A DNA stretch of 64,000 nt from Candidatus Zixiibacteriota bacterium. GTDB taxonomy: Bacteria; Zixibacteria; MSB-5A5; RBG-16-43-9. Positions within the stretch are counted from its first letter, which is position 1. Each line of letters opens with the position of its first letter. The notes under the pieces are model-generated. The model saw only the letters and a list, made by a program, of their open reading frames with translations, did no database searches and was not told where the DNA came from. Both the position numbers and the translations under genes were made by a program. The stretch lies in contig JAUYBY010000101.1 in NCBI GenBank assembly GCA_030692925.1, positions 3,663-67,662 on the forward strand, in the 5' to 3' direction. Shown piece by piece: positions 38,663-58,458 of this stretch.

Positions 38663-39217
38663 TTGATAGACAACAATGTAATTGGAGTAAAGACCCTGGA
38701 TGGGGATCGGAATGCACTATTTGAGCTCTTTGGGAAACTGCTCGGAGACGGCTACCATCTGGTTTACGTCAATGGTAATAAAAAGCATCAATTAGAACGG
38801 TGGGACTTTGGACTGGAGAGAACAGTGTTGTTTTTGCAACTGCTTAACAATACTAATATGAGAAAAGGCTGGAATGATTTGGTAAGCGAGGACCATGCGT
38901 GGGGATATGTGGTTAGTGATGGTGATAGATTTAAAGCTTTTATTGGGGAACTGCGGGAGAAAATGGCAGATAATAAAGATTGGGGAGTGCAGTATAATGA
39001 GCTGGCACTCGTTCCCGGGCAAACAACATATCAGGTTATGTGGAATATGCTCGGGGAGTTAGTCACTCTTCCTATAAATGAGAGAATTGCCCTAATCCGA
39101 GATCTGCGTATTCCTTGCTTTTGTAAAAACTGTTGGAAACGAGCTCCCTTCTTCCTGTTTAGGAAGTGGTGTCGATATGTATTTAGAAGCTTTGTTAGGA
39201 GGTGGCATAAACAATAA
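38663..39217 (+). CDS. hypothetical protein
   Basis: 184 aa. Confidence 0.35.
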   Translation: MIDNNVIGVKTLDGDRNALFELFGKLLGDGYHLVYVNGNKKHQLERWDFGLERTVLFLQLLNNTNMRKGWNDLVSEDHAWGYVVSDGDRFKAFIGELREKMADNKDWGVQYNELALVPGQTTYQVMWNMLGELVTLPINERIALIRDLRIPCFCKNCWKRAPFFLFRKWCRYVFRSFVRRWHKQ

Positions 39218-40383
39218 TGGGTACTGCTGTTTGGATTATTATGGGGGTGATTATTTTTATAGGGCTTTTTTGTAAAGAGGAGGAAGCAGTGAAAAAGCTA
39301 TCAAGGGAAGAGGAGGGGACTACTACTATACCAGTAGACTTCCCACTGGCTATGGAAGCAGACGCTACTACTCCACTGAAAGATTCTCCGATAGATACTA
39401 CTATAGAATCTTTAAATACACCAGCTCCGGTTTGTGATGCTTTGGCTCATCCCGTGTTCCCCCATCTGTTGTTGTGGGGGCCCGCCGGATCGGGTAAGAC
39501 TGCACTGGCTCGGGTGTTGGCTAATGAGTTAATAAAACCCTATGGTTATGCACCTAATTTTCTAGAGTTTACTCCAATGGTTCTAAGAGAGGAAGACACT
39601 ATTGACGCTATTCTTGTTGAGATGGTAAATTATGGAACTGTACTTTTTATAGATGAGGTTCATTCGTTGCCAAGTCAGGTTGAGGAATGTCTATATAGTG
39701 TAATGCAGGATGGGGTCTTTTCAGGGAAGTATGGAACCTTTAAAATTCCACCCTTCACATTGGTGGGGGCCACGACAAAAGCGGGGTTACTACAGAAGCC
39801 ATTAAGGGATAGGTTTACACTAGAGTTAGAGCTTGACCCCACAACGCAAGAAGATTTAATACAGATTATTAGGGATCAAGAACAAAACATTCCAGCTCCT
39901 ACTAATTTTAGTCAATACCACGGCCAAGAAAAAATCAAAATGCTCTTGAAGTTACACATTGCAGCCTTGTCCCAGCCAGATCCTCCCTTGGATTTGACGG
40001 ATGATATTAAACAATTTTTAGCAGAGAGGGCACTGAGCAATCCCCGGATCCTTAAGCAACTTTACCGGCATATAATTGCTTATTACAAAGTAGTGAAAAA
40101 AATGACAATTGTGGAGGCTGAGGTTTGTATGAATTTATTGGGAGTTGACAATTACGGATTGCACTCTTCCGACCGAAGAGTAATAAAAGCACTATTAAGG
40201 AGAGATAACAAACCTGTCGGGGCAAAGGCACTTGCAGGTGTTGCTAATGTCTCAGTTGTAGATTTGGAAGAAGCAATTGAACCAAGGCTTGTTCTGTCGG
40301 GGATGCTAGAAAGATCTAGCCGAGGTAGAATTCTTACACCACAAGCTTTAGAAATTTACAGTGAGCAAGAGGGGGGTATATGA
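39217..40383 (+). CDS. RuvB-family AAA+ ATPase (stand-alone, mobile-element-encoded)
   Basis: Walker A GPAGSGKT, Walker B LFIDEVH, sensor region PPFTLVGATTKAGLLQKPLRDRF nearly identical in pattern to RuvB; first ~45 codons hydrophobic/acidic and may precede the true start. Confidence 0.75.
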   Translation: MGTAVWIIMGVIIFIGLFCKEEEAVKKLSREEEGTTTIPVDFPLAMEADATTPLKDSPIDTTIESLNTPAPVCDALAHPVFPHLLLWGPAGSGKTALARVLANELIKPYGYAPNFLEFTPMVLREEDTIDAILVEMVNYGTVLFIDEVHSLPSQVEECLYSVMQDGVFSGKYGTFKIPPFTLVGATTKAGLLQKPLRDRFTLELELDPTTQEDLIQIIRDQEQNIPAPTNFSQYHGQEKIKMLLKLHIAALSQPDPPLDLTDDIKQFLAERALSNPRILKQLYRHIIAYYKVVKKMTIVEAEVCMNLLGVDNYGLHSSDRRVIKALLRRDNKPVGAKALAGVANVSVVDLEEAIEPRLVLSGMLERSSRGRILTPQALEIYSEQEGGI

Positions 40384-41241: not shown

Positions 41242-41805
41242 ATGAATTACGAAAAACTACCCAAGTATTTAACTCAGGAGCAAGTCAAGACATTCTTCTC
41301 CAAAATAACTCAAAAGAGAGACTATGCTCTATTTGGAGTAATCTACAAATATGGTTTGAGGGTTTCTGAAGCTTCCTTCCTGAATTTAGAGGACATAGAC
41401 CTTGAAAGAAGGAAAATCAGGATTACCAGAGCCAAAGGTGGAATCTCAGGAGAAAGGACTATCTTCCCGGATTTACTGAATAAGCTGAAAGCTTATCTAA
41501 TGGAAAGAAAAGATAATAGTCCTGCTTTATTCACTGGAAAGAGGGGAAGACTAAAGAAAAGGATGATTCAAGCTCTTTTTTACAGGTACGCTAAAGAAGC
41601 AAATCTTGAAAGATATAGCATTCATTGTCTGAGACATTCTATCGCTGTTCATCTCTTAGAAGATGGCCAGGGAATCGAATTTGTGCAGGATCAATTAGGA
41701 CACAGAAATATCAAAAATACTCTGATTTACTCGAAAATTACCAATCCAAGGAGGGAAGAAATTTATAGGGAGTTGGAGAATTCGAGGAAGGTTGTGAAAA
41801 TTTGA
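41242..41805 (+). CDS. tyrosine recombinase, catalytic domain only (187 aa)
   Basis: R (LRVSEA), HxLRH (HCLRHSIAVHL), Y (LIYSKI); lacks N-terminal SAM-like core-binding domain. Confidence 0.75.
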   Translation: MNYEKLPKYLTQEQVKTFFSKITQKRDYALFGVIYKYGLRVSEASFLNLEDIDLERRKIRITRAKGGISGERTIFPDLLNKLKAYLMERKDNSPALFTGKRGRLKKRMIQALFYRYAKEANLERYSIHCLRHSIAVHLLEDGQGIEFVQDQLGHRNIKNTLIYSKITNPRREEIYRELENSRKVVKI

Positions 41806-42413: not shown

Positions 42414-43331
42414 TTATTCATGCACTTCCTTATCTATAAACTGACTATGCCCTCCCTCGGGTACGTAAATATGGAATTTATGTGTTAGCAGTTTTGTTAT
42501 CCAGTTGAATAAGTTTTTTTGAAGTTCTTTAACCTCTTTTCTATATGGTTTTGGGTCATCCAGAAGAGAATCATGAATTTCCTTTGATAGTTCGCCAAAA
42601 CTCTTCCTCCCTATTAACGTCTTTTCCAACCATTTTATCACAGTTGAAGTCTCGAAGCTGCGTGATATTTCTTCAAAGTTTAGACAAGAGGGAACGATGT
42701 TCAACAACTTAACATCGTGCTCCGCAAATTCCGTTACCTGATCATGTAGTAACTCTTCTGGATCCTCGCAGAATGGAAAGTCATTTACAAATATACCTTG
42801 AGGCAACTTCCTTACTTCTTTGATTCTCGATTCATTCCAATCTGATGTTTCTTTGTCCGTGAGTTGCATGCTAAGTTCATTTAACAAAGCCTGATCGATG
42901 ATTTCTGAGTTTTTAATTATTGAATTTACGAAAAATATATCATCAGGTCTTACCTTTTCAGGACATGATAGGCATTCTATGTTGAACTGCATGTTGCCTA
43001 TTCCTAAACCTCTGCCAGTCATATTGGCACTACCAAACAATAATACCCCTTTATCGATCATGTACAATTTCGCATGAAGGTTTGAATTCCGAAATACCCT
43101 ACCTTTGCGTTGTGATACAATATCCGCAACACCGAGATCACTAGAGCCGCTTAAAATATCATATTTGCTCCACCTTGTAACTAGAGAAATTGTCACACGA
43201 CTTGAAATATCCTGCAATAGGTAGGTTGTTGCTTCAGACGTAGTAAAAGCTGATACAATAATAATCTCCGATTCTGCATCATCAAAAAGCTCTTTCAGTA
43301 AGCTTGCAGAATCACCGTAATGAATTGGCAT
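42414..43331 (-). CDS. PLD-family (HKD) nuclease-like protein
   Basis: 305 aa; perfect HxK(x)4D(x)6GSxN motif LHAKLYMIDKGVLLFGSAN; C-terminal ~170 aa unassigned. Confidence 0.75.
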   Translation of the reverse strand: MPIHYGDSASLLKELFDDAESEIIIVSAFTTSEATTYLLQDISSRVTISLVTRWSKYDILSGSSDLGVADIVSQRKGRVFRNSNLHAKLYMIDKGVLLFGSANMTGRGLGIGNMQFNIECLSCPEKVRPDDIFFVNSIIKNSEIIDQALLNELSMQLTDKETSDWNESRIKEVRKLPQGIFVNDFPFCEDPEELLHDQVTEFAEHDVKLLNIVPSCLNFEEISRSFETSTVIKWLEKTLIGRKSFGELSKEIHDSLLDDPKPYRKEVKELQKNLFNWITKLLTHKFHIYVPEGGHSQFIDKEVHE

Positions 43332-43350
43332 CTTGTTTCTGATTTAGATT

Positions 43351-45000
43351 TCATTCACTCCAGTAATCTTCAAAGTACTCGTAAAGCAAGTCTTGATCTG
43401 GGAAACCAATAATATTATCCCTTACATCAATGATCTTGCATTTGTCAGTCCCCCCAATCGCTGGACCTCGTATTCCTCGCCCAATCATTTGACTGTACAG
43501 AACCAAAGAAGCAGTTGGACGAGAAATAAAAACCACATCCGTTTGAGGTGCATCAAATCCTGTAGACAAAACACCATAATTGCATAAAACTCTAATATTC
43601 CCAGAACGAAAATCATCAATGATCTTCTTTCGCATATGAACAGGGGTGTCTCCATCTATGTGAGCTGCATAATAACCAAGATATAATAATACAGAACAAA
43701 TAAATTTCGAATGGTCAACGCTGCAGGCGAAAAACAATATTCTAGAACTGCTCTTTAGCTCTATGTCAATTCTTTTTATGATTTCAAGATTTCGAAGGTC
43801 ATCTTTGCCTAGATTAATCAGAAATCCAGAAGGAAGATCATATAGCGTTTCCAAGTTCTTACGCTCTTTTGCAGTTAACTCATATGTTCTATTAGTAAGC
43901 AAAGGCTCAAGGCTAATCTTAGCCAATATCTGCTTCTCGCGCAACCATTCAATGACTGATTTGGCTTCAGGTGGAGTTATTGATATGATTCTTTTAAAAA
44001 AGAAAGAAGCTAGTTCCTCATTTTCCTCTAATTCAGATGAACTTCTTCCAGGAGTTGCTGTTAGTCCAATAACCTGAGTATCTGATCCCATTAATGCTTT
44101 GGTTACTTCCTTATAAGTCGGGGCAATTACTTTATGTGCTTCGTCCACAACAATCAACTTAACCCGCTCCTTAATTTCATTGAATGGAACCCTATTACGT
44201 CTTAATAGAGAATAGAGCCCCTGGAAACTAGCCACTATAAAGCTTGTATGGTTTGATTCATAGGGTAGGGTGCTATTTCTTCCCCAGCACCTATATAGGT
44301 AAATAGGACGATCTGCCACGTGCACCCAAACATCTTTAAAACACTCAAGTGATTGCTCACAAAGTTCTTGAGAATGAGCAAGCCAAAGAATGATTCCATT
44401 ATTGCCTATATTTTTTATCTGTTGCGTCACGATTTCCATAGAAGTCCTGGTCTTTCCTGACCCGGTAGGCATCTGTATTACAAATCTCGAACGTGGCTTT
44501 GTCAACTCTATCATGGAACTACTAAAGACTGAGTATTGATAGTCCATCAAGGACTTGAAGGGTTTCATAATTGGTGTAAGAAATTCGCACGTTGGGTAAT
44601 CTGCCCGTTTAACAGGCATAAAGTGATCGGGTAAGTGGGCCCATTTCAAAAAATCTCTACAAAACTCTTCCTTTTGCCAGCCGAGAAAGACTAATTGACT
44701 TATGCTCTCATCAAATGTTTTATTCTCATCATAATATCCCAGAGTTTTACAGAGATCCTGCAATTTTTCCTTTGGTAGCTGATTAAGAAGTGTGAACATG
44801 AACTTTTTATCGCTTAAAATATCTGACGGAGCAAAGGCATTAAAGAGCTTGATAAGGTTTTCTTTTCTGAATAGTTCTGTTGGGTCATGATCCTCACCCA
44901 ACAAAATGGGTACTAAGGTTTCAAACCTATCAAAGCTCTGTTCGCCAATTATGCCCTCCAATTGTCGTTTATTTAAGAACTGCCAAATCATGAGGCTCAA
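43351..45000 (-). CDS. SF2 helicase, type III restriction Res-subunit-like (DEAH)
   Basis: 549 aa; motif I QMPTGSGKT, II VVDEAH, III GLTATPGR, VI QMIGRGIRG; ~170-aa N-terminal unassigned domain. Confidence 0.85.
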   Translation of the reverse strand: MSLMIWQFLNKRQLEGIIGEQSFDRFETLVPILLGEDHDPTELFRKENLIKLFNAFAPSDILSDKKFMFTLLNQLPKEKLQDLCKTLGYYDENKTFDESISQLVFLGWQKEEFCRDFLKWAHLPDHFMPVKRADYPTCEFLTPIMKPFKSLMDYQYSVFSSSMIELTKPRSRFVIQMPTGSGKTRTSMEIVTQQIKNIGNNGIILWLAHSQELCEQSLECFKDVWVHVADRPIYLYRCWGRNSTLPYESNHTSFIVASFQGLYSLLRRNRVPFNEIKERVKLIVVDEAHKVIAPTYKEVTKALMGSDTQVIGLTATPGRSSSELEENEELASFFFKRIISITPPEAKSVIEWLREKQILAKISLEPLLTNRTYELTAKERKNLETLYDLPSGFLINLGKDDLRNLEIIKRIDIELKSSSRILFFACSVDHSKFICSVLLYLGYYAAHIDGDTPVHMRKKIIDDFRSGNIRVLCNYGVLSTGFDAPQTDVVFISRPTASLVLYSQMIGRGIRGPAIGGTDKCKIIDVRDNIIGFPDQDLLYEYFEDYWSE

Positions 45001-45639
45001 TCAACCTTCATCTAAGTAGTTTTGCAGAATAGTACCCCAATTAAATAATAAGGTGTCTAGGTAGTTATCGGGTGGCATATCAGAAGAGTTGTCAAATAAT
45101 CTCTGCGACCTTGAAAAAGCAAGAAGCAATGAGTTCATTATTTCCAGTAATTCTCTTGATATTCGTTCCCCATTTGACACACTTCTATCATTAAGCAACT
45201 GAACCCTTAGATTATTCAGCCTATTATAAAATGCGTGGCCAGTATTTAGGATAATTTTATCGCGCCCTCCTTGCCCCTCCGTCAAGAAAAACAGAGGACT
45301 TCTTAACTCTGACTCTTCGTAGATGTAATCCCGTGGGTCATTCCTAGCCTTAACAATAGCACTTTTTTGGATGCTCACATCTTTTGAAACTCCTTTTGAG
45401 GTTTCGCATCGCTTATCGAGCCATTCTCTTATCACTTCTTCGTGCTGTGTAAGAATATTCTGGACTACTGCGAAAGTCTTTTCAGCTAAAGAAATCCCCT
45501 TTCTAGTGGCTATCAGCTTCTTACTTTTAGTATCATAAAAATGCTTACGTATATCTAAGGTACGTATACCCTTAAATTCGGATAATTGGAAGACAAGGGT
45601 AGATTTCTTGGTGCCTACGGCTGCTAGAATCTTGTTCAT
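45001..45639 (-). CDS. hypothetical protein sharing a C-terminal motif with the GHKL ATPase
   Basis: 212 aa; C-terminus DNYLDTLLFNWGTILQNYLD parallels GHKL protein C-terminus DRFIETLRLNWGFYLNSYLD; start overlaps GHKL stop (ATGA). Confidence 0.5.
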   Translation of the reverse strand: MNKILAAVGTKKSTLVFQLSEFKGIRTLDIRKHFYDTKSKKLIATRKGISLAEKTFAVVQNILTQHEEVIREWLDKRCETSKGVSKDVSIQKSAIVKARNDPRDYIYEESELRSPLFFLTEGQGGRDKIILNTGHAFYNRLNNLRVQLLNDRSVSNGERISRELLEIMNSLLLAFSRSQRLFDNSSDMPPDNYLDTLLFNWGTILQNYLDEG

Positions 45640-47333
45640 TTCCTCTCACCCTCCTCATGAAGCCAGGTATCCAAATAGCTATTTAAGTAAAAACCCCAGT
45701 TCAGCCTAAGGGTTTCAATGAATCTATCAGCAGTCCAAGTTTGACCGCTTTCGAATTTTGCCTCTGCCTTTGAGTAAGATATTAATAATAAATCGATAAG
45801 ACTCTTTAGCTTCCTGGACTCTACCGTGCTTTCACCTGAGATTTCTAACCTGCCAACTATCTTGTAAAGGGTTTCCATGAACAGATGCCTGCAGTTATAC
45901 ATGATAACATCAGACCCCCCTAAGTGATTCGTCTCAAAAAACTCCGGCCCTTTCCAATCTTCATCAATAATTGTAAAAGGTTGGCTAGAAAACTTGATGG
46001 CCCAAGCGGCCTTCTTTTGCTCTGATTCATCCTTTTTGACTTCATCAACAAGTTTCTTCGCCTCTTCGTCTCGAACCTTGTCTTTATCAATTGCACTTTT
46101 ATCAGTTTTGGTTAAAGCGGCAGTATTTTCTGCTTCCTCATGGCCGGTTAATAGGCCTTCTCCACTTTCTTCCCTTTGTTTTTTTCTCGCATCGATATCT
46201 GCTTCTGCCCAGACATCCCTAACTTTCTCTACAGCCGTTTTTCTAGTTGGGGTAATCTGTTCATATATCGCTTGTTTTAGCTCGGGCGCAGGAACGGCAC
46301 CTCGTTTTATATTTTTCACCGTAAATGCTCGATCTAAACAAGCTTTAAATGAAATTTCGCAACCCCACCATCTGTCGATTTCGGTGAATTTTTCTCCAGG
46401 CCAATAGGGGATATGTCCAAAAAACACTTCGCGATCATTCCTGAGAATTGTAATTCCTTCATTTCTGTCAATATATCTTATCCTAGCTATGTGTGATCCT
46501 CCAGAACCTTTTTGAGGTCGAAAACTCTCATCTATTAGACTCATACGAATTTCGATTGTGGATTCATCTGGTGCACCAGGAGGTTTATCAATATTAGGAA
46601 CCGGCCAATTCATCTTTATGGGTTGATATTCATATGCAGGGGGGTCGTCAGGGAACGCAGTGTTCTTTGTTGTCACGTATAGAGGATCGATAGCTTTTAC
46701 CTCCTCACCATTCACCTCAATCTTGAATCCCTTCCAAATAAACTTGCGATAAGCACGACCAAACCATATTTTCATTTCTTGAAGTATCTCATCGGCATCA
46801 CAAGGTTGCCTGTCGTATTTTTCCCAAACTACGATGGTTCCTGATTTTTCACCTGTTAGCCTTTGATAATCCCTGGGCAATTCCCTTACACGAGGCTCTG
46901 GGATATGTTCCATTTTAGGGGGTTCCGAAGTAATCTCATCAAGATCAACATATGTCCATAACCAACTCTCACTATTCTTTTCTTTTGAGAATATTTCTAC
47001 CCGCCGACATTGATTGATGGCTGCCAAGGTCATACCAACTCCAAACCGTCCTATTCCTGATCTATCGTTATAACGGGTCGAATATCCAAGCTGCATACAT
47101 CTATGTAAAACATCTGCTCGCATTCCGTAACCATCGTCACCAAAGACTATTCTTTCGACAACACCATAAGAATTCTTTCTTCCTGTTATAGTGTAGAGTA
47201 ACTTGATTTTTACAACGGTAGCATCTGCTTGTATGGAATTGTCTACAACTTCTCCATATGCGCTATATGTGTCAAAATCCGAATTTCTCATTGATAATAA
47301 CGCCGTGGCTTCATTGACGAGCCTGACATCCAT
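45636..47333 (-). CDS. MORC/MutL-like GHKL ATPase
   Basis: 565 aa; Bergerat motifs I EVVDNSIQADA, II FGDDGYGM, III GRFGVGM. Confidence 0.8.
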   Translation of the reverse strand: MDVRLVNEATALLSMRNSDFDTYSAYGEVVDNSIQADATVVKIKLLYTITGRKNSYGVVERIVFGDDGYGMRADVLHRCMQLGYSTRYNDRSGIGRFGVGMTLAAINQCRRVEIFSKEKNSESWLWTYVDLDEITSEPPKMEHIPEPRVRELPRDYQRLTGEKSGTIVVWEKYDRQPCDADEILQEMKIWFGRAYRKFIWKGFKIEVNGEEVKAIDPLYVTTKNTAFPDDPPAYEYQPIKMNWPVPNIDKPPGAPDESTIEIRMSLIDESFRPQKGSGGSHIARIRYIDRNEGITILRNDREVFFGHIPYWPGEKFTEIDRWWGCEISFKACLDRAFTVKNIKRGAVPAPELKQAIYEQITPTRKTAVEKVRDVWAEADIDARKKQREESGEGLLTGHEEAENTAALTKTDKSAIDKDKVRDEEAKKLVDEVKKDESEQKKAAWAIKFSSQPFTIIDEDWKGPEFFETNHLGGSDVIMYNCRHLFMETLYKIVGRLEISGESTVESRKLKSLIDLLLISYSKAEAKFESGQTWTADRFIETLRLNWGFYLNSYLDTWLHEEGERK

Positions 47334-47360: not shown

Positions 47361-48587
47361 TTATGTTGGCAGCATACTTGATTGTTTCATTACTATATAC
47401 TTATCTAAAAAGTCCAATCCTTCCTCGAAATTATCGAAATCTGCATCTGAAATCTCGTGGAGCATTTTAAAGTATCTGGCAACTTCTTTGTCTGTAAGGG
47501 ATTTTTCGTCTACAAAGATTATAATTTTGCCTAAAGCCTTCGCAAAACCTAACTCACTCGCCAAAGCAAATCCACTTGGGTTATCTGCTTCGAGATAAGC
47601 AAAAATACAATCACAGTTTTTTATTGCCTCTAAATCCCAAAACGTGTATTCCTTTTCGCCCTGGAAACCGTGACTCCTAGGATCCAAAAAATGTATATTT
47701 GGGTATCTGTTGATAATTGCGTCTTGCCACTTAGTGTAAAATCCTCCTGCTAGGTAGATTGACAATTTCTTTTTCTGATCAATGACATTAACCCTGTTAT
47801 GTTGCATATTTTTCGATGCTGAAAGCTCTTTAACATTATTAGAACTATGAGCCTTTGACCTAAGTCTTGCTAAGGCCATTGGAAATGGCACTCTCATTGC
47901 TCTTGAATAGAATTCGTACCTTCTTGCAATGAAAAACAAGGATAAAACAGCTGGGATTAACAGGCTTAAAATATTTAGTTCAAAGTTTACAGATATTATG
48001 CTGAATCTGTGTAATAAGTATATGCCAAGTTGAATTATCACCATCATTATTAAAATTGTTGAGATACCCAAATTGAAGAGCGATATAAACATGAATCTAT
48101 GGACTATATGGATATCGTCACTAGCAATCGTCATTGCGATGCTTCTCATAGAATGAACGACTGTTTTGTTTGATGTCTCTGATCGTTGATTACCGACATC
48201 AAGCTGCATTAGATCACGAAATGCTCTGAAATCATCACTTTCGATAATGCTTCCAAGTAGTTCATCGTCTGATTTTAAATTCCAGGATTTTGGTATAAGA
48301 AACTTAAAAGCTCTTACCTTTTTTTGCAGGTTGATGAGATAATTTCCGAGGTTGATAATAACTACATTCCCAAAACTTATTACAAAATGACCCGATATAT
48401 AGCTCAATAATATCATCAGGAACCATTCAAATGAACTTGAAGGCGGAAATAATGAGAGAACACCAATTCTAACAGGCGAACCCAAGATATACGACAAAGA
48501 CAGCACTAATAACAAACCAGGAACAAGGGTTCCTATGATCTCATTAAAAAATCTTTCTAGTGTCTCGATTAGCTCACTTGACCTCAT
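47361..48587 (-). CDS. multi-TM protein with C-terminal nucleoside 2-deoxyribosyltransferase-like (NDT/Rcl-fold) domain
   Basis: 408 aa; ~5 TM helices in first 230 aa; C-terminal IYLAGGF ... CDCIFAYL ... ASELGFAKALGKIII matches NDT-family YLAGPF / ELG(Y/F)A motifs. Confidence 0.55.
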   Translation of the reverse strand: MRSSELIETLERFFNEIIGTLVPGLLLVLSLSYILGSPVRIGVLSLFPPSSSFEWFLMILLSYISGHFVISFGNVVIINLGNYLINLQKKVRAFKFLIPKSWNLKSDDELLGSIIESDDFRAFRDLMQLDVGNQRSETSNKTVVHSMRSIAMTIASDDIHIVHRFMFISLFNLGISTILIMMVIIQLGIYLLHRFSIISVNFELNILSLLIPAVLSLFFIARRYEFYSRAMRVPFPMALARLRSKAHSSNNVKELSASKNMQHNRVNVIDQKKKLSIYLAGGFYTKWQDAIINRYPNIHFLDPRSHGFQGEKEYTFWDLEAIKNCDCIFAYLEADNPSGFALASELGFAKALGKIIIFVDEKSLTDKEVARYFKMLHEISDADFDNFEEGLDFLDKYIVMKQSSMLPT

Positions 48588-48594
48588 AAGATAT

Positions 48595-49395
48595 CTACAA
48601 GTAACATATTAGACAGGGAGGATCTGAACCTTCATCTTCCAGCATTTTTTCCAGAGCTTCAGCAAGAGTTTTGCCTTTCGATTCTGATGACTTTCTGACA
48701 AGCGTTTTCTCAAAATCTTCGAGTATTTGCTCTCTTCTCTGAATCAGCTCACTCAGTGATTCCCCTTGATTCCAATAGAAAGTACGACCATCACCGTGTG
48801 ATGTCTCATATCTCATGGCCTCTTTAAAAAGATCCGGATGCTCCTCAGCTAACCTAATCCATTCGTACTTTCTCTGAAAAAAACAGAAATAGCATCCCGA
48901 CCGAGATCTCCAACGATAATAGCTAGGCATACCTATACCGCTATCTCCAAGCAGACGAAAGATGTCTTTCTTAACAAGACCTGCCTCTTTAAATGGGTAG
49001 ACTGGCTTGATATTCGGTTTAGTGGATATGTAGCCAGTTCGATCTTCGTCTGCTCTAATTCCTATATAACTGAAAATCGTATCATCGCCAGCGTACTTCT
49101 CAAAGGGAACAATTTTCAACTGTTTTGTGCACCATCGAGCTTTAACCGAAGGCAAATACCCACCATATACCTGTAACCAGTGATCAAAGCCTCGTTCAGA
49201 GCTCAAATGCGTGATCTTTATACCTAATCTAGCTTCCAAGCGCACAAGGAATTCGTAAGTTTCGGGCAGTTCTTTGTGAGTGTCGCAAAACACGTATTCC
49301 AGCTGTGGAACTTTTTTGTGCATATAAACGGCCAAAGCCGCACTATCCTTACCACCCGAGAGAGATAGTATGTGGCGAACCTTCTCTTTAGTCAT
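48595..49395 (-). CDS. PAPS-reductase-family PP-loop ATP pyrophosphatase
   Basis: 266 aa; PP-loop SLSGGKDSAAL; ARWCTKQLK and C-terminal Cys cluster as in DndC/SspD/BrxP-type enzymes. Confidence 0.75.
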   Translation of the reverse strand: MTKEKVRHILSLSGGKDSAALAVYMHKKVPQLEYVFCDTHKELPETYEFLVRLEARLGIKITHLSSERGFDHWLQVYGGYLPSVKARWCTKQLKIVPFEKYAGDDTIFSYIGIRADEDRTGYISTKPNIKPVYPFKEAGLVKKDIFRLLGDSGIGMPSYYRWRSRSGCYFCFFQRKYEWIRLAEEHPDLFKEAMRYETSHGDGRTFYWNQGESLSELIQRREQILEDFEKTLVRKSSESKGKTLAEALEKMLEDEGSDPPCLICYL

Positions 49396-50812
49396 GAACT
49401 TTCTCGCTCTCCTCTTTTTGAGACTCTAGATCTGTATTGCTTTTATCATCCTTGCGATTATCTCTGCAAAGTACTTTTTCTATCATGGAAATGATCACGG
49501 GTTTTATAAGCTTCTCATTATATCTCAGATTTTCGTCATGGAGTATTTGCTCAGCAATTTCATTTATTTTATCCTTCTGGTCTAACTCAGTCCAGATGAC
49601 CTCTCTCATCTCCTTACCGTCGGGAAGAGTGAGAGTAACTCTTCTTACATCAAAACCGTCCAACTTTGCTCTTGAAAGCTCGTCTTGTAAGGCTTCCAGA
49701 TTAGTGAACCTTCTAACAAGCTCGCTCAGTCTTGCTTCAAAACTCAGAACATCGTCGTCAGTCCAAAACCTAGGGGGCTTATCGGCCACAACCATAAGAA
49801 GTGCTTCTAACCATTTGGTATCATCTATTTCCTCATTCGCAGCAGCTAGGACAAAGCTCTTCAAACAAGGATCGAGGACGCGGTCCTTTATATAGTGAGT
49901 TCTAACCTTAAGGTTTCCTCTCAACCTTTCTAAATCAGATCCTAAGGCAAAGGCGCTATGAAGCAATTCCCTGCAGTGCATAAGAAGGTCCGAATAAGCA
50001 CTCTGGATTTCTTGCAGAACTTTGTACAATTTTTGCCTGAAATCTCTTGCTACTTGACTATCATAAGTCACATCAGCATTTGATAATACTACTCCACATG
50101 CTTGCGGCAAGGCGACAAAAAGCAGATTATCCGGCTCCGTTTCGGTGAGAAGAGCACGTCTGACAGATATTGCCTCCTGGCTCAAGCGATTTGTGCTCAG
50201 AGTGTAGGGGGGCAACTTTCTTACTATTGCTATCAAAGGTTTTACAACTCCTAATAGGGTGGCATTCCAAACCTTATCAGCTCTAGTGTAAGAGGAATTG
50301 AATAGACCTTCTTGCAGTTCCTTGAATATACTAGCATTGACTCCGGACATTTTAAGGCTCTTTACACTGAACCTCACAGGATTTCTGACTAAAAGTTCAA
50401 AATGCTCTACTCCAAGCACAGGTATGAATGCGCCGTCAAGATAAAGGGTCAAATCTTCGCTGTGAGATAGAAGAACTGCTGCCAATAATACAGGAATGCA
50501 TCCTTGCTTAACGCCGTACGGTGGAGCCTCAAGTATTTGTATTAACATGTTTATTGACTTCGGCGCGTCAGTTGCCGATAGACAAAAATCTTCAATAGCC
50601 TTCCACACCTCGTAAACATCACTCTTTTCATTGGGATTTACAAAGTACCACTTATCCTTGTTCCTCCTGTAGATACCGGTTTGAGCAAATAGACTTTCAA
50701 AGATGCTACACTCAGATCCATTTCCTACTAATCCCAGTCGTTCCTTTCCTTCGTTGGTGATCATTGCTTCTATCAACTTTCGTCTAGCCTGCATCCCCTG
50801 CGATGTTAGCAA
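49388..50812 (-). CDS. hypothetical protein (474 aa) in PP-loop operon
   Basis: overlaps PP-loop gene start by 8 bp; no recognisable motif. Confidence 0.5.
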   Translation of the reverse strand: MLTSQGMQARRKLIEAMITNEGKERLGLVGNGSECSIFESLFAQTGIYRRNKDKWYFVNPNEKSDVYEVWKAIEDFCLSATDAPKSINMLIQILEAPPYGVKQGCIPVLLAAVLLSHSEDLTLYLDGAFIPVLGVEHFELLVRNPVRFSVKSLKMSGVNASIFKELQEGLFNSSYTRADKVWNATLLGVVKPLIAIVRKLPPYTLSTNRLSQEAISVRRALLTETEPDNLLFVALPQACGVVLSNADVTYDSQVARDFRQKLYKVLQEIQSAYSDLLMHCRELLHSAFALGSDLERLRGNLKVRTHYIKDRVLDPCLKSFVLAAANEEIDDTKWLEALLMVVADKPPRFWTDDDVLSFEARLSELVRRFTNLEALQDELSRAKLDGFDVRRVTLTLPDGKEMREVIWTELDQKDKINEIAEQILHDENLRYNEKLIKPVIISMIEKVLCRDNRKDDKSNTDLESQKEESEKVHD

Positions 50813-50902
50813 TCTTCGATTTATGAGTTCGTTCCAGAGTCGAAGGCCCTTATGATAGACATGGTCACTGATATCGGATAGTAGTCTATTAAAGTATCTA
50901 TT

Positions 50903-52906
50903 TTAATCAAGTTTCTTCTGTCTACCTTTTATCCAATAAGTGAAATTAGTTAGTGAATCATCGAAAGAATGTGACAGAGCCTGGTCCAATAGTCGCATGG
51001 CACTAATCAGACGTTGCTTAACCTCATTTCTGGCGACTCCGTCGGTTCTCAATTGAGGTGCGTTCTCCTGGATTCTTTTTAATGCCACATATTCATTAGA
51101 TGCTAGTCTCAGAGCTTCAAGGTCTCTAGCACAGATAACAATAAGTGGTCTAAAATCTTGGGTCTGTGCTGGCACCTCCCGCAATTCCGCTTTATCACCT
51201 ACCCAATAACAAATCAATCCGTCGCTCTCGAACTCCTGGCATTTGCTATTCTTTATGTTAGCAACTCTATCGAAGTATTGTCTCTCGAAATAGCGAACCG
51301 TGCCCGTCAGATAACTGTGACGCCTTGCAACTACAGGAGCTAGAGGATAATGCTGATTCAACAAATCCGATAGAGAAGGAGTCATGGTAACAGTCTGTTC
51401 GGCGATTTCTCTCTCTATATCAAAATCAGACCCTTGCCATATCCTTAGCTCATCGAGTTGCCTTCGAAGTGTCACAAAACCTTTGTCCACAAGGACGTCC
51501 ACGACTTTTTTCCAATGGGACAGTTCTTTTGCATTTCTAGGATCATCACACAGGGCAAAAGCAACTAGCTGAAGAGAAGCCCTAAGTGGTCCTGAAGTCG
51601 AGATAAGGTTCAGTATACCAATTGTTTTTAAGGCTACAAAAACATCAGGATCAAGGTGTTTAGCATCCAAGATACTTTCCTGAATTTCAACCCAACGCTG
51701 ATAATTAGGTCGCCTAGATATTGTCATTCCTGCCGATTCAATGAAGTAATCATATATGCGGTCTAACTTCAGGGTTGGGAGCTTAGTATTGTCAAACGAA
51801 TACTCGTTTAAGAAACTCGCAAAAGAGTGGGGCTCCTGGCTAGCCAAAAATGTGAACAGTGTTCGATCGTTCTGGGCATAGCGGCTGCATAGAATCGGCA
51901 ACGCTAGAGCGGCCACCGGGTGAAATGGATAAATAGAAGCAATGTTGTCAGAAGAAATGCCATGAAAGATGTTGCTTTCTTTAAAAACGGTCAACCATAT
52001 CCGAGACCATTTTCTTATGGACGAGCAGAGATTATTTGTGGTCGTATTTGTGATTGCTTGTCCTATTACCTTTATTGTTTGTCCAGGGGACTCGATCCAT
52101 GGAATATCTTCAAAGCGACCTTGAATTTTAGCCCATTCGTTTCTCTGCGCCGCACTGAGACCGTGGGCATAGTCCGCAAAGGATTGATGAAGGAGTCCAA
52201 ACAGGAAAACCCTTGATTCGCCGCTCGTGGAAAAAGACTCGGCTATTTGTTGGAGAACATAAAGATCCTCAACCGATTGACTGAGAGCTGCGGATTCTAG
52301 GCTTTTGCCGAGCTCATCTATGATCAGCAATATTCCGTTGTTAGCGCTATCGGCTACCTTTTGTATAATATCGATTAATTTCTGATCAGTGATTTTCTCT
52401 CCGTAACCTATTTTCTTTCTTAATTTGTCAAGCTCAAATAGGACCCCGGGTTTTTTCCCTCTCTTTTTCTGCCAAAAAAGTTGTGTTCCGCGCAGAAGCG
52501 CTTTTATAATAGTAGTTCTGATCGATTCGCGCTGCGCCGTTGCAACCGCTCTAATAAGTCCCTCTTTGGGGATTTTATCTGTCCAAGAATCACAGAGCTC
52601 AGAGTCTGCCTCCCGAAGAATCTGCAGCGCATTTGTGTGAATTCTCTCTGTAGTGGGAGAACACAGAGCGGTTAGAAAATGCGCAAAAGCTGATTTCCCA
52701 GTTCCGTAGACTCCAGTTAATGTCCAGGCACTGACCGCACGCGGTGAAGAAAAAGATTCAAGGAATCTTCGAGTCGTTTCAAGGGCTCTAGCAGTTGGAA
52801 TATATCCCACGATACTATCAGGGACTTCTAAGTCGCGCTCGAGATTTACGGAGCGTACATACCTACGTCGAATCGTAATATATCTTGAAAGCTGTTGCAT
52901 CCTCAC
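50903..52906 (-). CDS. large P-loop NTPase
   Basis: 667 aa; Walker A GVYGTGKS, Walker B LLIIDELGK; family not assignable by eye. Confidence 0.7.
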   Translation of the reverse strand: MRMQQLSRYITIRRRYVRSVNLERDLEVPDSIVGYIPTARALETTRRFLESFSSPRAVSAWTLTGVYGTGKSAFAHFLTALCSPTTERIHTNALQILREADSELCDSWTDKIPKEGLIRAVATAQRESIRTTIIKALLRGTQLFWQKKRGKKPGVLFELDKLRKKIGYGEKITDQKLIDIIQKVADSANNGILLIIDELGKSLESAALSQSVEDLYVLQQIAESFSTSGESRVFLFGLLHQSFADYAHGLSAAQRNEWAKIQGRFEDIPWIESPGQTIKVIGQAITNTTTNNLCSSIRKWSRIWLTVFKESNIFHGISSDNIASIYPFHPVAALALPILCSRYAQNDRTLFTFLASQEPHSFASFLNEYSFDNTKLPTLKLDRIYDYFIESAGMTISRRPNYQRWVEIQESILDAKHLDPDVFVALKTIGILNLISTSGPLRASLQLVAFALCDDPRNAKELSHWKKVVDVLVDKGFVTLRRQLDELRIWQGSDFDIEREIAEQTVTMTPSLSDLLNQHYPLAPVVARRHSYLTGTVRYFERQYFDRVANIKNSKCQEFESDGLICYWVGDKAELREVPAQTQDFRPLIVICARDLEALRLASNEYVALKRIQENAPQLRTDGVARNEVKQRLISAMRLLDQALSHSFDDSLTNFTYWIKGRQKKLD

Positions 52907-53913
52907 TTTCTTTTCCTGTAATATTTTGTCAAAACTTGTTCAACTAATAGGCTAGGAGGCCTCTTAAAAGAAAACTGGATTAAACCTGCTGTCTCCGATA
53001 GAGAAATATCTGGAAAGTCTGTAGAGACCTTGTCTATGGCTTCACGGAGAGAAGGATCAGATAGTTTGAAAACGTGCCCCGGGCTTCCAATATCATACAG
53101 AAGGCGAGAAATGGAAATTGTTTTCGCACTGCTTTCAATCCGCGAGATGAAATCGAGACAACAGACAACAATAATCTCTGCAGGTAGTTCGTATTTGCTT
53201 CCCATATTGAAAGAATAATGCTTAGTATCGCCATAGTCCTGTAGGAGTCCCAAATCGGCAAAAGGACAGTCCAGCGAATCCTCACTTGGTCCTCTTAAAT
53301 TGTTATGTCTAACATACATCCGCAGAATACAATTGACATCTTTTCTAAGGGACGAGTCAGCAACTTTGCTTGATGGAAACAGTCGCTCCTTAAACTCTTT
53401 CAGGGCTGAAAACAGATCTTCAGCAGTGAATATCAGTTGATTGAATTCATTGAAAGTAAAGTACCAGGCAGTTGCTCTGCATGGAGGTTTTAGTAAACTC
53501 CACTGAAGCAGCCATAGTGATCCGGGATCTTCAAGATATGGGTCCCAACCCTTATCCCCAAGAAGCTTAACGCCAAATTCGGAAGGTACCATTTGGTGGC
53601 TTCTACCCAAAGCATCCTCCGCCTCGTCAAGCACTTTGAACGCAAAACACCAGTACCTAATGGCCTTGGCCATGTTCTTCCCGACGCCTAAAATGATATG
53701 AGCATCTTCTCTTGCGAAAATTGTGTGTTCTGTGGATGCCTTATCAAATCCCTTCTTTAGCCAACCATAACGTGGATGGAAGGTTTCATGTCTACAGAAC
53801 ATAGGAACGTTTGTCGACGAATACAGCGACGGCATATGAGCAAGAATGTCTAGTGTGGCTTTTCCTCTCAGGAAAGCACTTGTATTTGCTTTAGGCATAT
53901 TGAATCCTAACAT
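52903..53913 (-). CDS. hypothetical protein (336 aa), first gene of PP-loop operon
   Basis: 4-bp overlap with P-loop ATPase; conserved-looking N-terminal FHPRYGWLKKG. Confidence 0.5.
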   Translation of the reverse strand: MLGFNMPKANTSAFLRGKATLDILAHMPSLYSSTNVPMFCRHETFHPRYGWLKKGFDKASTEHTIFAREDAHIILGVGKNMAKAIRYWCFAFKVLDEAEDALGRSHQMVPSEFGVKLLGDKGWDPYLEDPGSLWLLQWSLLKPPCRATAWYFTFNEFNQLIFTAEDLFSALKEFKERLFPSSKVADSSLRKDVNCILRMYVRHNNLRGPSEDSLDCPFADLGLLQDYGDTKHYSFNMGSKYELPAEIIVVCCLDFISRIESSAKTISISRLLYDIGSPGHVFKLSDPSLREAIDKVSTDFPDISLSETAGLIQFSFKRPPSLLVEQVLTKYYRKRK

Positions 53914-54971: not shown

Positions 54972-55496
54972 TTATGTTTGATCATACAAAAGCTCTATTC
55001 TTCCCCATCTACAAGAATAGAGGAATACGCCTAACTCGGGCACTGCAAAAAGGTTTCCTCCAATAATTACCAATATACTTTCAGGACAGTTGGTTTCACT
55101 ATCAGCCGATATAGCTGATTGAGTCATATTGTCCATATGACTCGGAATAGGAGTGCCATTCGGATGACTATGCCACTCGCCAACGTAATATCTTCTCCCC
55201 CCATATCTTTGCTGTAATTTGTTATAAAATGCCCTAAGACCTTTGATTCCTCTAAAAAATGAATTGTCATAGCACCTTGAGTCAGAACACAGAGGACTCG
55301 CATCGAGAACAAATGCATCAAATCCATCATCAGAATAACATCCCACTAACGACGTTCCAACTTCGTGTGGATGATGCTTTTTCCCCATCTTAAGCATCTT
55401 GTTAAAGCAAAAATGTGAAATTGAAACAGTATATCGGCCACATTTGGATTTCCACTTCAGTGGAAGCTCATTATTCATGGATATTGATTGGTCCAT
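54972..55496 (-). CDS. cap3: JAB/MPN (JAMM) metallopeptidase, CBASS Cap3-like
   Basis: 174 aa; JAMM motif EWHSHPNGTPIPSHMD (HxHx7Sx2D). Confidence 0.8.
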   Translation of the reverse strand: MDQSISMNNELPLKWKSKCGRYTVSISHFCFNKMLKMGKKHHPHEVGTSLVGCYSDDGFDAFVLDASPLCSDSRCYDNSFFRGIKGLRAFYNKLQQRYGGRRYYVGEWHSHPNGTPIPSHMDNMTQSAISADSETNCPESILVIIGGNLFAVPELGVFLYSCRWGRIELLYDQT

Positions 55497-57310
55497 ACTA
55501 TTTCAACAAACGGAGAAGATTGGACTACTTTGCTATTAAGCGAATTTCTCTTGATTATCACTACAAGCCCTTTTCCATCACCTTGTTCGATATGGTGATT
55601 GATAATATCCATAGCAGTTGCCGTCAATACATAAATATGGGCGTTCAGCGCAGGAAAAGTTGGATGCCAACAACCTGCCCCTTCAATGATTTGCTCTTCC
55701 CTCGATGGTTGATATAGATATTCTTGTGACGTAATCGGTAACTGTTCTTTTTTAACGCATGACATCAAATCTTGAAAAATTTCATCACACGAGGTTTCCC
55801 TTCCAGAAATTAGTAGAGTAATAAGCTCCGCATGAAAATTGAAGAACAAAGATATGATCTGTTTTCTTTCGACTGTTGCATATTTGTTCAACCAGTCGAA
55901 GGCCGATTCACTTGCAGTACTATTAATGATTATATCTGTCCGTGAAAGAGATTTGTAGGCATCATTTTGTGATGAAGGACTTAGGGGTATTCCGATCGGA
56001 TAACCAATAATAGTTGATAATGGATTGGTCCTTGAAAGTTTCCATGCGAGTGACTTTGCTTTGTTAAATCCTAGAAATGTTCCATCGAGTGTATGGCGAC
56101 AAAAATTGCCAATTTGAATGTTTTTAGGATCGAACAAGTAAAGGACCCTAACACCACCGCGAGTCAATAGTTCAGCGATAAGACTACCTAAAGCACCGCA
56201 ACCAAAGATAGCCACCCGCGCTGATCGAATCGACCGTGAATAGGAACCTCTGGCATATATTCTATCATCTGCGACATTAGATGATTTACCCCAAGGTAGC
56301 TGCTGAGCGAATTTGAAACGATCATGCTCTTGTAATCTCTTCCAAATCCTGTTTAGCTTAATGGATTTACACTTTACTGACTTCCGTTCAACTCTTAAAT
56401 TGGGAAATACAAGTGGTTGCCAATGCATTTCAATAGGTTTCTCGCCGTAGATTTTTGGGATTGGAAACCCGATTAATATCAGTCCGATTTCCGGGTCACG
56501 ATTCTCGACCTTCCATGCTTCTTTAAGAATATCATAAAAGTCCAAGTCATTGGCCGAACATAGTTGGGTAATCTCTCTATATGTTTGGGGCGGACGATGA
56601 CGCTTGAAACGAATATCAGGCAAAATCAGCCAGTTTCCAATCAGTTTCTTATCTTGGTCGAGAATCCCAGAGGAGAATTCTGATTCCCATACAATTGAGC
56701 TGTTATCGCTGAATCGAACTGCAAATATTGCTGGAATACAATTACCTACAAAGCATTCCACTATTCCAGATTTCCCAATATATGGTTTCCATTTTTCATA
56801 TGATTTTTCAGTTTCATTAAAGAGTATGGGAAAATCGGTCGGAAAGCTTTCGCCTAACAACTTTCGGCTGAAATCAGGCAATTCGTATGGATCACCTGGT
56901 TTAAGAAGGTTAGCATTGGCAGCGTCTGTGAGCCAGTTTTTTGCCCAATTAACATAGTGTACGAGTCGTTCAGCATTCCGGGGCGCCAAACGTTCCGCAG
57001 GAAGACATAACTTTCCTGTTTCTGAATCTTGATGCGGAAACCCTTTAACCTCCTCACAGTTTGAGAAAATGTCAACAGGTAAGAATGGGAAACCTTCTAG
57101 AATGCATACCTGCACATCTACCGCAGCCGGGATATTCTCTGGGTTGGGGTAAGGAACTGATACAACGCAGTCAAATATCCATCCTTTCCTACCGCTTGTG
57201 TGGTTCCAATAGAGTGGCTTCGTTACATCGACGATGCGGTATTGTAGTAGAAGATCATAAGCTTCCAAAACAACTTCAGGTATTTTTGCATCATTAAGCA
57301 TCGTATCCAT
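55475..57310 (-). CDS. cap2: E2-E1 fusion (ThiF/MoeB-like adenylation domain), CBASS Cap2-like
   Basis: 611 aa; C-terminal Rossmann RVAIFGCGALGS...LFDPKNIQIGNFCRH (ThiF/E1 pattern); ~340-aa N-terminal region consistent with E2-like domain. Confidence 0.75.
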   Translation of the reverse strand: MDTMLNDAKIPEVVLEAYDLLLQYRIVDVTKPLYWNHTSGRKGWIFDCVVSVPYPNPENIPAAVDVQVCILEGFPFLPVDIFSNCEEVKGFPHQDSETGKLCLPAERLAPRNAERLVHYVNWAKNWLTDAANANLLKPGDPYELPDFSRKLLGESFPTDFPILFNETEKSYEKWKPYIGKSGIVECFVGNCIPAIFAVRFSDNSSIVWESEFSSGILDQDKKLIGNWLILPDIRFKRHRPPQTYREITQLCSANDLDFYDILKEAWKVENRDPEIGLILIGFPIPKIYGEKPIEMHWQPLVFPNLRVERKSVKCKSIKLNRIWKRLQEHDRFKFAQQLPWGKSSNVADDRIYARGSYSRSIRSARVAIFGCGALGSLIAELLTRGGVRVLYLFDPKNIQIGNFCRHTLDGTFLGFNKAKSLAWKLSRTNPLSTIIGYPIGIPLSPSSQNDAYKSLSRTDIIINSTASESAFDWLNKYATVERKQIISLFFNFHAELITLLISGRETSCDEIFQDLMSCVKKEQLPITSQEYLYQPSREEQIIEGAGCWHPTFPALNAHIYVLTATAMDIINHHIEQGDGKGLVVIIKRNSLNSKVVQSSPFVEIVWTNQYP

Positions 57311-58454: not shown

Positions 58455-58458
58455 GTTT

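Follow-up and report, generated by a model that had tools for sequence, protein, structure and literature searches.

The restriction partners described for phosphorothioate (PT) modification systems, namely SspE, SspFGH, DndFGH, DndI and PbeABCD, are nucleases or NTPases, and in the nucleoside 2-deoxyribosyltransferase (NDT) superfamily the enzymes DNPH1, MilB and BcmB act on nucleoside monophosphates, 5-hydroxymethylated ones included. SspE and SspFGH can share a single SspABCD module (Wang et al., 2021, PMC8092258), and Dnd/Ssp-type systems have been suggested to carry backup effectors and to sense or destroy modified nucleotides made by phages (PMC10853773). A role as abortive-infection (Abi) toxins has been predicted for NDT domains (PMC3710099), and the NDT-like N-glycosidase of Retron-Eco1 hydrolyses NAD(P)+ (PMC12673091). 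Here we analyse a gene of a Candidatus Zixiibacteriota bacterium that joins a transmembrane (TM) half to an NDT domain and lies in a stretch of 64,000 nucleotides (contig JAUYBY010000101.1, positions 3,663 to 67,662 of the forward strand; hereafter the window). The gene is the fused version of a two-part module that is elsewhere encoded by two genes. This TM-NDT module is found almost only within Ssp phosphorothioate loci, and independently of whether the restriction type is SspFGH, GHKL-helicase-PLD or BREX (bacteriophage exclusion)-like.

47361..48587, minus strand: whole TM-NDT gene, ATG start, 408 amino acids (aa) plus stop, from the list of open reading frames (ORFs)

An earlier note, made from the letters of the window, had described this ORF, and its account is mostly correct, the corrections being that there are four TM helices and that the operon is an Ssp operon. 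The ORF is real, lying on the minus strand with an ATG start, and its product is identical to an NCBI "hypothetical protein" of a metagenome-assembled genome (MAG) of candidate division Zixibacteria. The motifs IYLAGGF and SELGFA are found as claimed, at residues 277-283 and 344-349. Full-length homologues share 34-50% identity with the protein.

A word-indexed search gave only 17 relatives. With an exhaustive profile search, 1136 cluster representatives were reached at E ≤ 1e-3, and at E ≤ 1e-30 the number was 258. Among them are fused, TM-only (about 240-270 aa, profile positions 1-249) and NDT-only (about 125-140 aa, positions 262-387) proteins. Contexts were mapped for seven relatives, for 25 GTDB genome loci retrieved with the motif YRFMFISLFNLG of the third TM helix as scan pattern, for one plasmid and for one metagenome locus, and the loci were annotated by PADLOC and by phmmer against reference proteins. 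Core Ssp genes (SspB/C/D and/or SspF/G/H) are present in 27 of the 35 distinct homologue-bearing loci, and Ssp-related modules in a further four: a DUF4007 protein, a large BrxC-sized protein without PADLOC match, PglZ, BrxL and SspA in locus L003; SspB- and SspC-like proteins of weak similarity together with a DUF87 ATPase in L010; GHKL, helicase and PLD proteins on a short contig in L026; and an SspD-like protein, again of weak similarity, in L036. The last four loci consist of fragments, short contigs or copies of NDT alone: L018 lies by an integrase, L023 by an ArdC gene, L037 is degenerate and L035 is only 1.8 kb long. The genomic context within Ssp loci thus gives strong support to the defence role suggested in the earlier note. 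As a separate observation, L023, from Edaphobacter modestus, carries an NDT-only homologue (9992-10417, 141 aa) without recognisable TM partner or Ssp genes; its neighbours are two large ORFs (1411 and 1124 aa) that carry no annotation, and an ArdC-like anti-restriction gene.

The position of the module varies with the locus. It stands between SspBCD and SspFGH in Nitrospira, Blastocatellia, L007 and L101, and as separate TM and NDT genes it follows SspFGH, convergent with SspBCD, in Undibacterium, Oceanobacter, Janthinobacterium, Xanthomonas, Curvibacter and others. The window and L002 share the order SspBCD-[TM-NDT]-GHKL-PC4-helicase-PLD, while in L025 the two genes come last, after SspBCD-helicase-GHKL-PLD; in L017, L020 and L030 they follow SspBCD and face GHKL or helicase proteins. 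Finally, in L003 and L016 the gene comes directly after that of the cysteine desulfurase SspA. Overlaps of 4 nt with SspF or SspH are found in L007, L013, L029 and L101, and these start/stop overlaps indicate co-translation.

The hosts, cultured strains included, belong to Zixibacteria, Nitrospirota, Acidobacteriota, Desulfobacterota (Desulfomonilia), Bacteroidota and Beta-/Gammaproteobacteria, to which one plasmid is added. The NDT partner, a soluble protein of about 130 aa, is present in Salibacter halophilus KCTC 52047, Paraburkholderia fynbosensis LMG 27177 and Duganella flavida FT135W, and likewise in the cultured Xanthomonas sp. NCPPB 1128 and Janthinobacterium sp. LB3P112. No homologue was found among 50,697 phage records, and the plasmids searched gave a single one, from Ca. 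Tenderia, annotated as a hypothetical protein.

In 14 loci, TM and NDT are two genes: the TM gene ends within the variable linker, and the ATG or GTG start of the NDT gene overlaps or abuts the TM stop codon. As the split loci, all but one, come from different genera or MAG lineages, the two-gene form is genuine and does not result from decay. Frameshifted pseudogenes were considered as an explanation of these two-ORF forms and rejected, in view of the proper ATG/GTG starts that overlap the upstream stop in the linker in the 14 loci. Together with the split forms, the fused protein of the window strongly indicates that its TM and NDT parts act jointly.

In the window, the genes around the TM-NDT gene are the following.

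52903..53913, minus strand: SspB (DUF4007; Pfam DUF4007 E=1.2e-96, PADLOC SspB E=6.7e-116)
49388..52906, minus strand: SspC, frame broken by one in-frame TAA at 50903-50905 (PADLOC, translation)
48595..49395, minus strand: SspD, PAPS-reductase/PP-loop (PADLOC SspD E=8.5e-113; Pfam PAPS_reduct)
42414..47333, minus strand: downstream genes, presumed restriction module (Pfam and PADLOC), made of the next four
45636-47333, minus strand: GHKL ATPase
45001-45639, minus strand: PC4-like protein
43351-45000, minus strand: superfamily 2 (SF2) helicase
42414-43331, minus strand: PLD nuclease

The gene had been placed last in a PP-loop operon, and this is right, the operon being SspB-SspC-SspD by PADLOC and Pfam; its phosphorothioate identity had been missed. 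A GHKL operon had further been said to begin 28 bp on. The adjacency holds, since the gene is 7 nt from the upstream sspD and 27 nt from the GHKL gene, whose start is preceded by a GGAGG ribosome-binding site, but of a separate operon start there is no sign. In a scan for promoters and terminators, the best promoter-like site precedes sspB (54133-54105) and a hairpin resembling a terminator comes after the PLD gene (42317-42305); neither site class is enriched over shuffled sequence, and the picture is compatible with a single sspB-to-PLD transcription unit. Another promoter-like site lies within the 3'-terminal part of the TM-NDT gene (47518-47545, minus strand; TTGCGA, 16 nt, TATAAT; 10/12 matches), about 185 nt upstream of the GHKL start, and could be the source of a transcript of the restriction module's own, the whole scan being not above chance. 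No sspA is present in the stretch of the window examined; the housekeeping IscS commonly substitutes for SspA (PMC8092258).

The two halves of SspC are both matched by the PADLOC SspC model (1e-237 and 9e-145, model positions 2-650 and 684-1104). The stop is codon 668, where the intact homologues of L001, L002 and L013 have sense codons, and the conserved LWNELINR motif resumes past it. The TAA is either a nonsense mutation, which would mean that the Ssp system is decaying, or an error of the MAG consensus. As to the presumed restriction module, the GHKL-PC4-helicase-PLD cassette also adjoins SspBCD in L002, L025, L041, L071, L085, L093, L095 and L105. It shows weak MzaB, PbeA, DrmC and dnd_restrict_1 similarities in PADLOC/NCBIfam and nothing stronger, and no paper was found that combines phosphorothioate, GHKL, helicase and PLD; the cassette looks like an unnamed Ssp-coupled restriction module.

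The frequency of the TM-NDT module was then assessed from the Ssp side. An SspD alignment was seeded into a metagenome collection to obtain the 80 closest SspD loci (48-67% identity), 59 of which are informative, with at least 1.3 kb downstream of sspD, and the TM and NDT hidden Markov models (HMMs) were applied to all 80. L101 is the only locus with the module, which makes 1 of the 59 informative ones, and the module is therefore optional and dispensable for phosphorothioation. A role as a core component of PT chemistry was accordingly rejected, the module being absent from the other 58.

The same loci show what else can follow SspD. L041 encodes SspB-C-D, a bona fide SspE (PADLOC 1074 bits; Pfam GmrSD_N and GmrSD_C) and then helicase-GHKL-PLD-SspA; L044 has the order SspD-SspE-helicase, and L047 a DUF262 protein between SspD and SspF. 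In L071, L085 and L105, SspD abuts the GHKL/helicase genes with nothing intervening, and the slot is elsewhere filled by Uma2 nuclease repeats, a DUF2887 protein, a SWIM protein (PDC-S62) or AAA proteins. The TM-NDT module thus occupies the position of the optional effector SspE, L041 being an otherwise similar locus.

Such a variable slot raises the possibility that the module is an independent passenger, i.e., a defence or toxin unit of one or two genes, complete in itself, that resides in Ssp islands while being functionally unlinked to them. The unrelated cargo also accepted after SspD (Uma2, DUF2887, SWIM, AAA), the rarity of the module among Ssp loci and the few copies outside Ssp, by an integrase or an ArdC gene (L018, L023), would be in line with this idea. 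We nevertheless regard it as improbable: about 31 of the 35 loci, from many phyla, are Ssp-related, which is far above the expectation for island hitch-hiking, the overlaps with SspF/SspH indicate co-translation, and the non-Ssp copies are fragments or a lone NDT gene.

The C-terminal part of the protein carries the following features.

47373..47771, minus strand: cytoplasmic NDT-superfamily domain, residues 273-405
47634..47636, minus strand: Asp318 codon GAT, in the WDL motif, at the NDT general-acid position (sequence, alignments)
47553..47555, minus strand: Glu345 codon GAG, predicted catalytic nucleophile (sequence, alignments)

The conserved motifs of the domain are YLAGGFxSxWQ, DPxxH, YTxWDL and ExxNPGGYxLxxExGYA. 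In the window protein, PF15891 (Nuc_deoxyri_tr2) matches residues 275-361 barely over the cut-off (E=4.7e-7, 30.5 bits for a cut-off of 30) and PF05014 is slightly under it (27.3 bits for 28.8), while the full-length relatives, 14 out of 14, match both (best E=1.9e-10). When the family profile is run against PDB sequences, the CMP N-glycosidase BcmB comes top (about 5e-6), followed by YtoQ and several NDTs; in Foldseek, 4mcj is top, followed by NDTs, MilB, BcmB and DNPH1. The fold of the domain is the flavodoxin-like, three-layer alpha/beta architecture also seen in NDT, Rcl and MilB.

Glu345, in SELGFA, is invariant across 14 fused and 22 NDT-domain sequences, stand-alone ones included, and aligns with the Glu of NDT "VELGMA" (8qc0/8rh3) and of BcmB "IEIGWA" (4jen); in the NDT of L. 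leichmannii, the catalytic nucleophile is Glu98 (Porter et al., 1995, cited in PMC3710099). Asp318 is invariant in the same sequences and aligns with "ADLQDVK" of NDT and "LDYDAIK" of BcmB, and Tyr278, in the YxAG strand, is kept in at least 90% of the sequences, with Phe in one. Since W287, Q288, P303, H306, E333, N336 and P337 are family-specific and invariant, the domain defines a distinct NDT subfamily. Judging from its fold and catalytic residues, the C-terminal domain is therefore a member of the NDT superfamily with an intact Glu/Asp pair, for which N-glycosidic activity is predicted.

These results are in agreement with the NDT/Rcl-type domain and acidic Glu expected from the first inspection, which are supported by Pfam, the PDB profile search, Foldseek and the alignments alike; the HMM and structure searches point neither to an unrelated Rossmann fold nor to the absence of the Glu. 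The analogy then drawn with SLOG and ThsA does not hold as well, as NDT, MilB, BcmB, DNPH1 and YtoQ are much nearer than LOG/SLOG or TIR. We found no LOG-type fold or motif with LOG, SLOG or DprA as nearest relatives, no TIR fold and motifs as best match, and no TIR or SLOG match in Pfam for the protein or its relatives. A SLOG-like sensor was thus set aside, NDT-family enzymes being clearly the nearest relatives and the nucleophile invariant. Because this nucleophile is retained and the nearest relatives are catalytic N-glycosidases, catalysis is favoured over pure ligand sensing.

An NDT domain next to DNA-acting genes could also be imagined to work on DNA itself. The tethered domain would then strip bases from entering, possibly hypermodified phage DNA, and the abasic sites would feed the nickase/helicase modules. 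NDT domains have been proposed as DNA-acting toxins (PMC3710099), restriction glycosylases exist (PMC10273834), and DNA-acting restriction modules are always a neighbour of the gene. Such base excision is very improbable in our opinion, as the characterised members of the fold use free nucleosides, nucleotides or NAD and not polymeric DNA (general knowledge and PDB descriptions), and as Pfam finds no DNA-binding domain in the protein.

The nature of the nearest relatives also bears on a housekeeping role linked to PT itself, in which the enzyme would clear sulfur-bearing nucleotide by-products of a PT-marked genome. Its substrates would be nucleoside 5'-phosphorothioates, nuclease-resistant PT dinucleotides from repair or turnover, or side products of SspD, comparable with DNPH1 and 5-hydroxymethyl-dUMP (hmdUMP), and the TM partner might dispose of the product. 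In favour of this role, the SspBCD modification module is the sole constant partner, the restriction module being variable; the gene directly follows SspA in two loci (L003 and L016); the nearest characterised relatives are N-glycosidases of modified nucleoside or deoxynucleoside monophosphates (NMP/dNMP), with BcmB as top sequence match and MilB and DNPH1/Rcl by fold; and an optional accessory, present in 1 of 59 loci, would suit a function that improves fitness. Yet 98% of the close SspD loci lack the module, the strongly conserved 250-aa membrane domain is left unexplained, the gene sits in the slot of the effector SspE, and known pathways offer no such case, so that the idea comes by inference only. 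We thus hold this role to be unlikely, if still worth keeping in mind.

The N-terminal half and the linker are organised as follows.

48477..48539, minus strand: TM helix 1, residues about 17-37 (hydropathy, AlphaFold2 (AF2) helix 3-35, 14-sequence alignment)
48348..48431, minus strand: TM helix 2, residues about 53-80 (hydropathy, AF2, alignment, lysine plus arginine (K+R) counts)
48102..48347, minus strand: cytoplasmic helical insert between TM2 and TM3, residues 81-162 (K+R counts, AF2 helices 107-154, alignment)
48012..48101, minus strand: TM helix 3, residues about 163-192 (hydropathy, AF2, alignment)
47925..47972, minus strand: TM helix 4, residues about 206-221 (hydropathy, AF2, K+R counts)
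47883..47924, minus strand: cytoplasmic juxtamembrane motif RRYxFYSRAMRVPF, residues 222-235 (alignments)
47772..47846, minus strand: variable low-confidence linker, residues 248-272 (predicted local distance difference test (pLDDT) <50; split-locus junctions)

The number of TM helices is four (about 17-37, 53-80, 163-192 and 206-221) according to hydropathy, AF2 models and K+R counts in 14 sequences, and not the "about five" of the earlier note. The same three lines of evidence indicate an N-in/C-in topology, with the loop of about 80 residues at 81-162, basic and helical, in the cytoplasm. The AlphaFold model of the full-length protein has a pLDDT of 77.5, and that of the TM half by itself a pLDDT of 81.4 with a predicted TM-score (pTM) of 0.76. 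Conservation extends over the whole half. TM1 is preceded by a conserved amphipathic helix (ERFFxDxIG; F13, D16, G19, P23 and G24 are kept), and TM2 contains GYIxGHxVxSIG, with invariant Y63, G66 and G73. The insert is K/R-rich (mean of 10.9 K+R over the 14 sequences) and terminates in a conserved WRSIAMT, R148 and A151 being invariant. The TM3 motif YRFMFISLFNLG is the top of conservation in the protein (F165, M166, F167, S169 and G174 invariant), and R222, F226, V233 and F235 are invariant in the juxtamembrane motif. The TM half has no match in Pfam, NCBIfam, PADLOC or PDB, and for the whole protein nothing is found in PADLOC or NCBIfam. As judged from these comparisons, the four-TM half is a new conserved family of inner-membrane proteins without known relative.

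The conservation of this half could be accounted for by a ligand-gated membrane effector, in which the NDT domain would be a nucleotide sensor and the four-TM domain a pore or depolariser causing abortive infection. The TM half is conserved like the enzyme half and has polar or charged invariants (R148, S169 and R222), and it is modelled as a confident helical bundle (pLDDT 81, pTM 0.76). Furthermore, it is general knowledge that NDT-family enzymes are oligomers, which would gather at least eight TM helices, and that TM effectors with nucleotide-binding domains are common in CBASS (cyclic oligonucleotide-based antiphage signalling system), Pycsar (pyrimidine cyclase system for antiphage resistance) and Thoeris. 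On the other hand, the invariant nucleophile Glu and general-acid Asp speak for catalysis, and Ssp loci encode no signal-generating enzyme. A gated effector is in our view rather unlikely, and between the two, the evidence leans towards a membrane-held N-glycosidase over a nucleotide-gated pore.

Our leading reading, held tentatively and somewhat short of probable, is that the module serves Ssp defence as an auxiliary effector other than a nuclease. It would be an N-glycosidase tethered to the membrane, and both this role and the small nucleotide-type substrate are inferred. The NDT domain would cleave this substrate at the cytoplasmic face of the membrane. Of the two likeliest substrate classes, one is (deoxy)nucleoside monophosphates, phage-made modified ones included, as with DNPH1, MilB and BcmB, and this class fits the sensing or destruction of modified nucleotides proposed for Dnd/Ssp-type systems (PMC10853773). 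The other is NAD(P)+, as with the NDT-like effector of Retron-Eco1 (PMC12673091). Either activity would starve phage replication once nuclease-based restriction has been evaded, and the TM partner would act as a tether for the enzyme and probably also as its gate. If so, this would be a new type of effector for PT-based immunity, beyond its nuclease/NTPase partners, and would connect it to the nucleotide/NAD depletion known from retrons, Thoeris and CBASS. As the NDT partner is only about 130 aa long and is present in cultured strains, the hypothesis is directly testable.

Several points weigh against an auxiliary N-glycosidase effector. No sensor or trigger could be identified. Effector modules are usually promiscuous across defence systems and this one is nearly exclusive to Ssp, which would be no less compatible with a role in connection with phosphorothioate chemistry. 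The orphan TM half equals the enzyme half in conservation and might itself be the effector and not an anchor. The argument from the SspE position comes from a few loci only: SspE is found in none of about 30 TM-NDT loci and in 4 of the 59 SspD loci, which is not statistically meaningful, and mutual exclusion with SspE cannot be claimed because the numbers are too small. Finally, the copy of the window may belong to a decaying or inactive system, because of the premature stop in SspC.

A more daring proposal, which we regard as a long shot, is that the module represents a third, non-nuclease class of PT-linked effector, by which the PT mark is sensed not on DNA but in the form of a small molecule. 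Degradation of the PT-marked chromosome by a phage would lead to a build-up of PT dinucleotides, which resist nucleases, or of nucleoside phosphorothioates; these products would be bound or cleaved by the NDT domain, whereupon the four-TM partner would either collapse the membrane or unleash the hydrolysis of NAD or nucleotides. This would explain at once why the module is linked exclusively with SspBCD, why it does not depend on the restriction module and why it needs a conserved membrane partner. If true, the epigenetic mark would double as a damage-associated alarm signal.

Within the literature searched, the presence of a TM-NDT module in Ssp loci was previously unremarked. There is no mention of the gene in the SspFGH paper, in the paper on BREX type 4 and PT or in the 2024 comparative-genomics reappraisal of Dnd/Ssp, and no paper was found that relevantly joins phosphorothioate and 2-deoxyribosyltransferase; as coverage of the literature is incomplete, an earlier description is possible.

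The surroundings provide some further observations. Immediately upstream of the Ssp genes of the window is a complete type II CBASS-like operon (54972-59973, minus strand):

58459-59973, minus strand: SAVED-domain effector
57294-58454, minus strand: SMODS cyclase
55475-57310, minus strand: ThiF/E1-like Cap2
54972-55496, minus strand: JAB Cap3

The region is thus a defence island. At its flanks (35611-36450 and 41242-41805 on the plus strand, 39217-40383 and 29991-31508) there are two tyrosine recombinases, one of them truncated (187 aa), a RuvB-like AAA+ protein and a weak AEP-TOTE primase-like match, and G+C is lower there (0.37-0.40). The island probably sits on an integrated mobile element. 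At other loci, SspBCD is coupled to a BREX-like module, which comprises one DUF4007-like (about 280 aa) and one BrxC-like protein (about 1400 aa), together with PglZ, BrxL and sometimes SspA (L003, L042 and L090; partial in L052, L062, L064, L103 and L113). Such loci look like hybrids of Ssp and BREX that differ from the BrxP-based BREX type 4. Lastly, in L048 (3357-6457) and L049 (6899-9998), sspC and sspD are separated by a tandem series of four ORFs, each about 194 aa long, which is an odd repeated insertion within a modification operon. A single one was scanned, from L049, and it is a Uma2-family putative restriction endonuclease.

When compared with known systems, the module shares with the NDT superfamily (BcmB, MilB, BlsM, DNPH1/Rcl, classical NDTs and YtoQ) the Glu nucleophile in ExG(Y/F)A, the Asp in xDLxAI and the N-terminal YxAG strand motif. 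In the uncharacterised YtoQ, YLAGEIHSNWRE is nearly identical to the YLAGGFxSNWQ of the module; judged by title and abstract, none of the papers that mention YtoQ addresses its function. The similarity to the known enzymes is marginal, with Pfam at threshold and a best PDB E of about 5e-6. These enzymes are soluble and stand-alone, working in nucleotide salvage, antibiotic biosynthesis or pool sanitation, whereas the module has a four-TM partner and a place in a defence operon. Type II retrons (Retron-Eco1/Ec86 and Sen2) likewise use an NDT-superfamily domain as the toxic or effector arm of anti-phage defence (PMC12673091, PMC7736814). Their effectors, however, have a C-terminal DNA-binding domain and are restrained by reverse transcriptase and multicopy single-stranded DNA (RT-msDNA), the module having instead its TM partner and Ssp genes. 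The retron effector is absent from the sequence matches (E≤1-10) and from the fold matches listed, Pfam finds no domain besides NDT in the protein, and neither Pfam nor PADLOC finds a reverse transcriptase among the neighbouring genes scanned. With TM-plus-TIR/SLOG effectors (SLOG of ThsA, CBASS/Pycsar, Rst_2TM_1TM_TIR), the module has in common a design in which a Rossmannoid domain is combined with membrane segments; unlike CBASS/Pycsar effectors, it has no linked cyclic-nucleotide synthase, the CBASS of the window being a separate operon 6 kb away.

The comparison with SspE is one of place. Both are optional SspBCD partners, able to occur alongside modules of the SspFGH type (PMC8092258), and both come directly after SspD, ahead of a second restriction module (L041, L044 and L047 for SspE; the window, L002, L013 and L101 for the module). 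The two are unrelated in sequence and in fold: the module lacks DUF262 (GmrSD_N), DUF1524 (GmrSD_C) or any PADLOC match, while the same tools recognised SspE in L041 and L044. SspE is a soluble, PT-sensing protein that combines a DUF262 NTPase with a DUF1524 HNH nickase and acts on DNA, whereas the module that takes its position is a membrane protein with the fold of an N-glycosidase.

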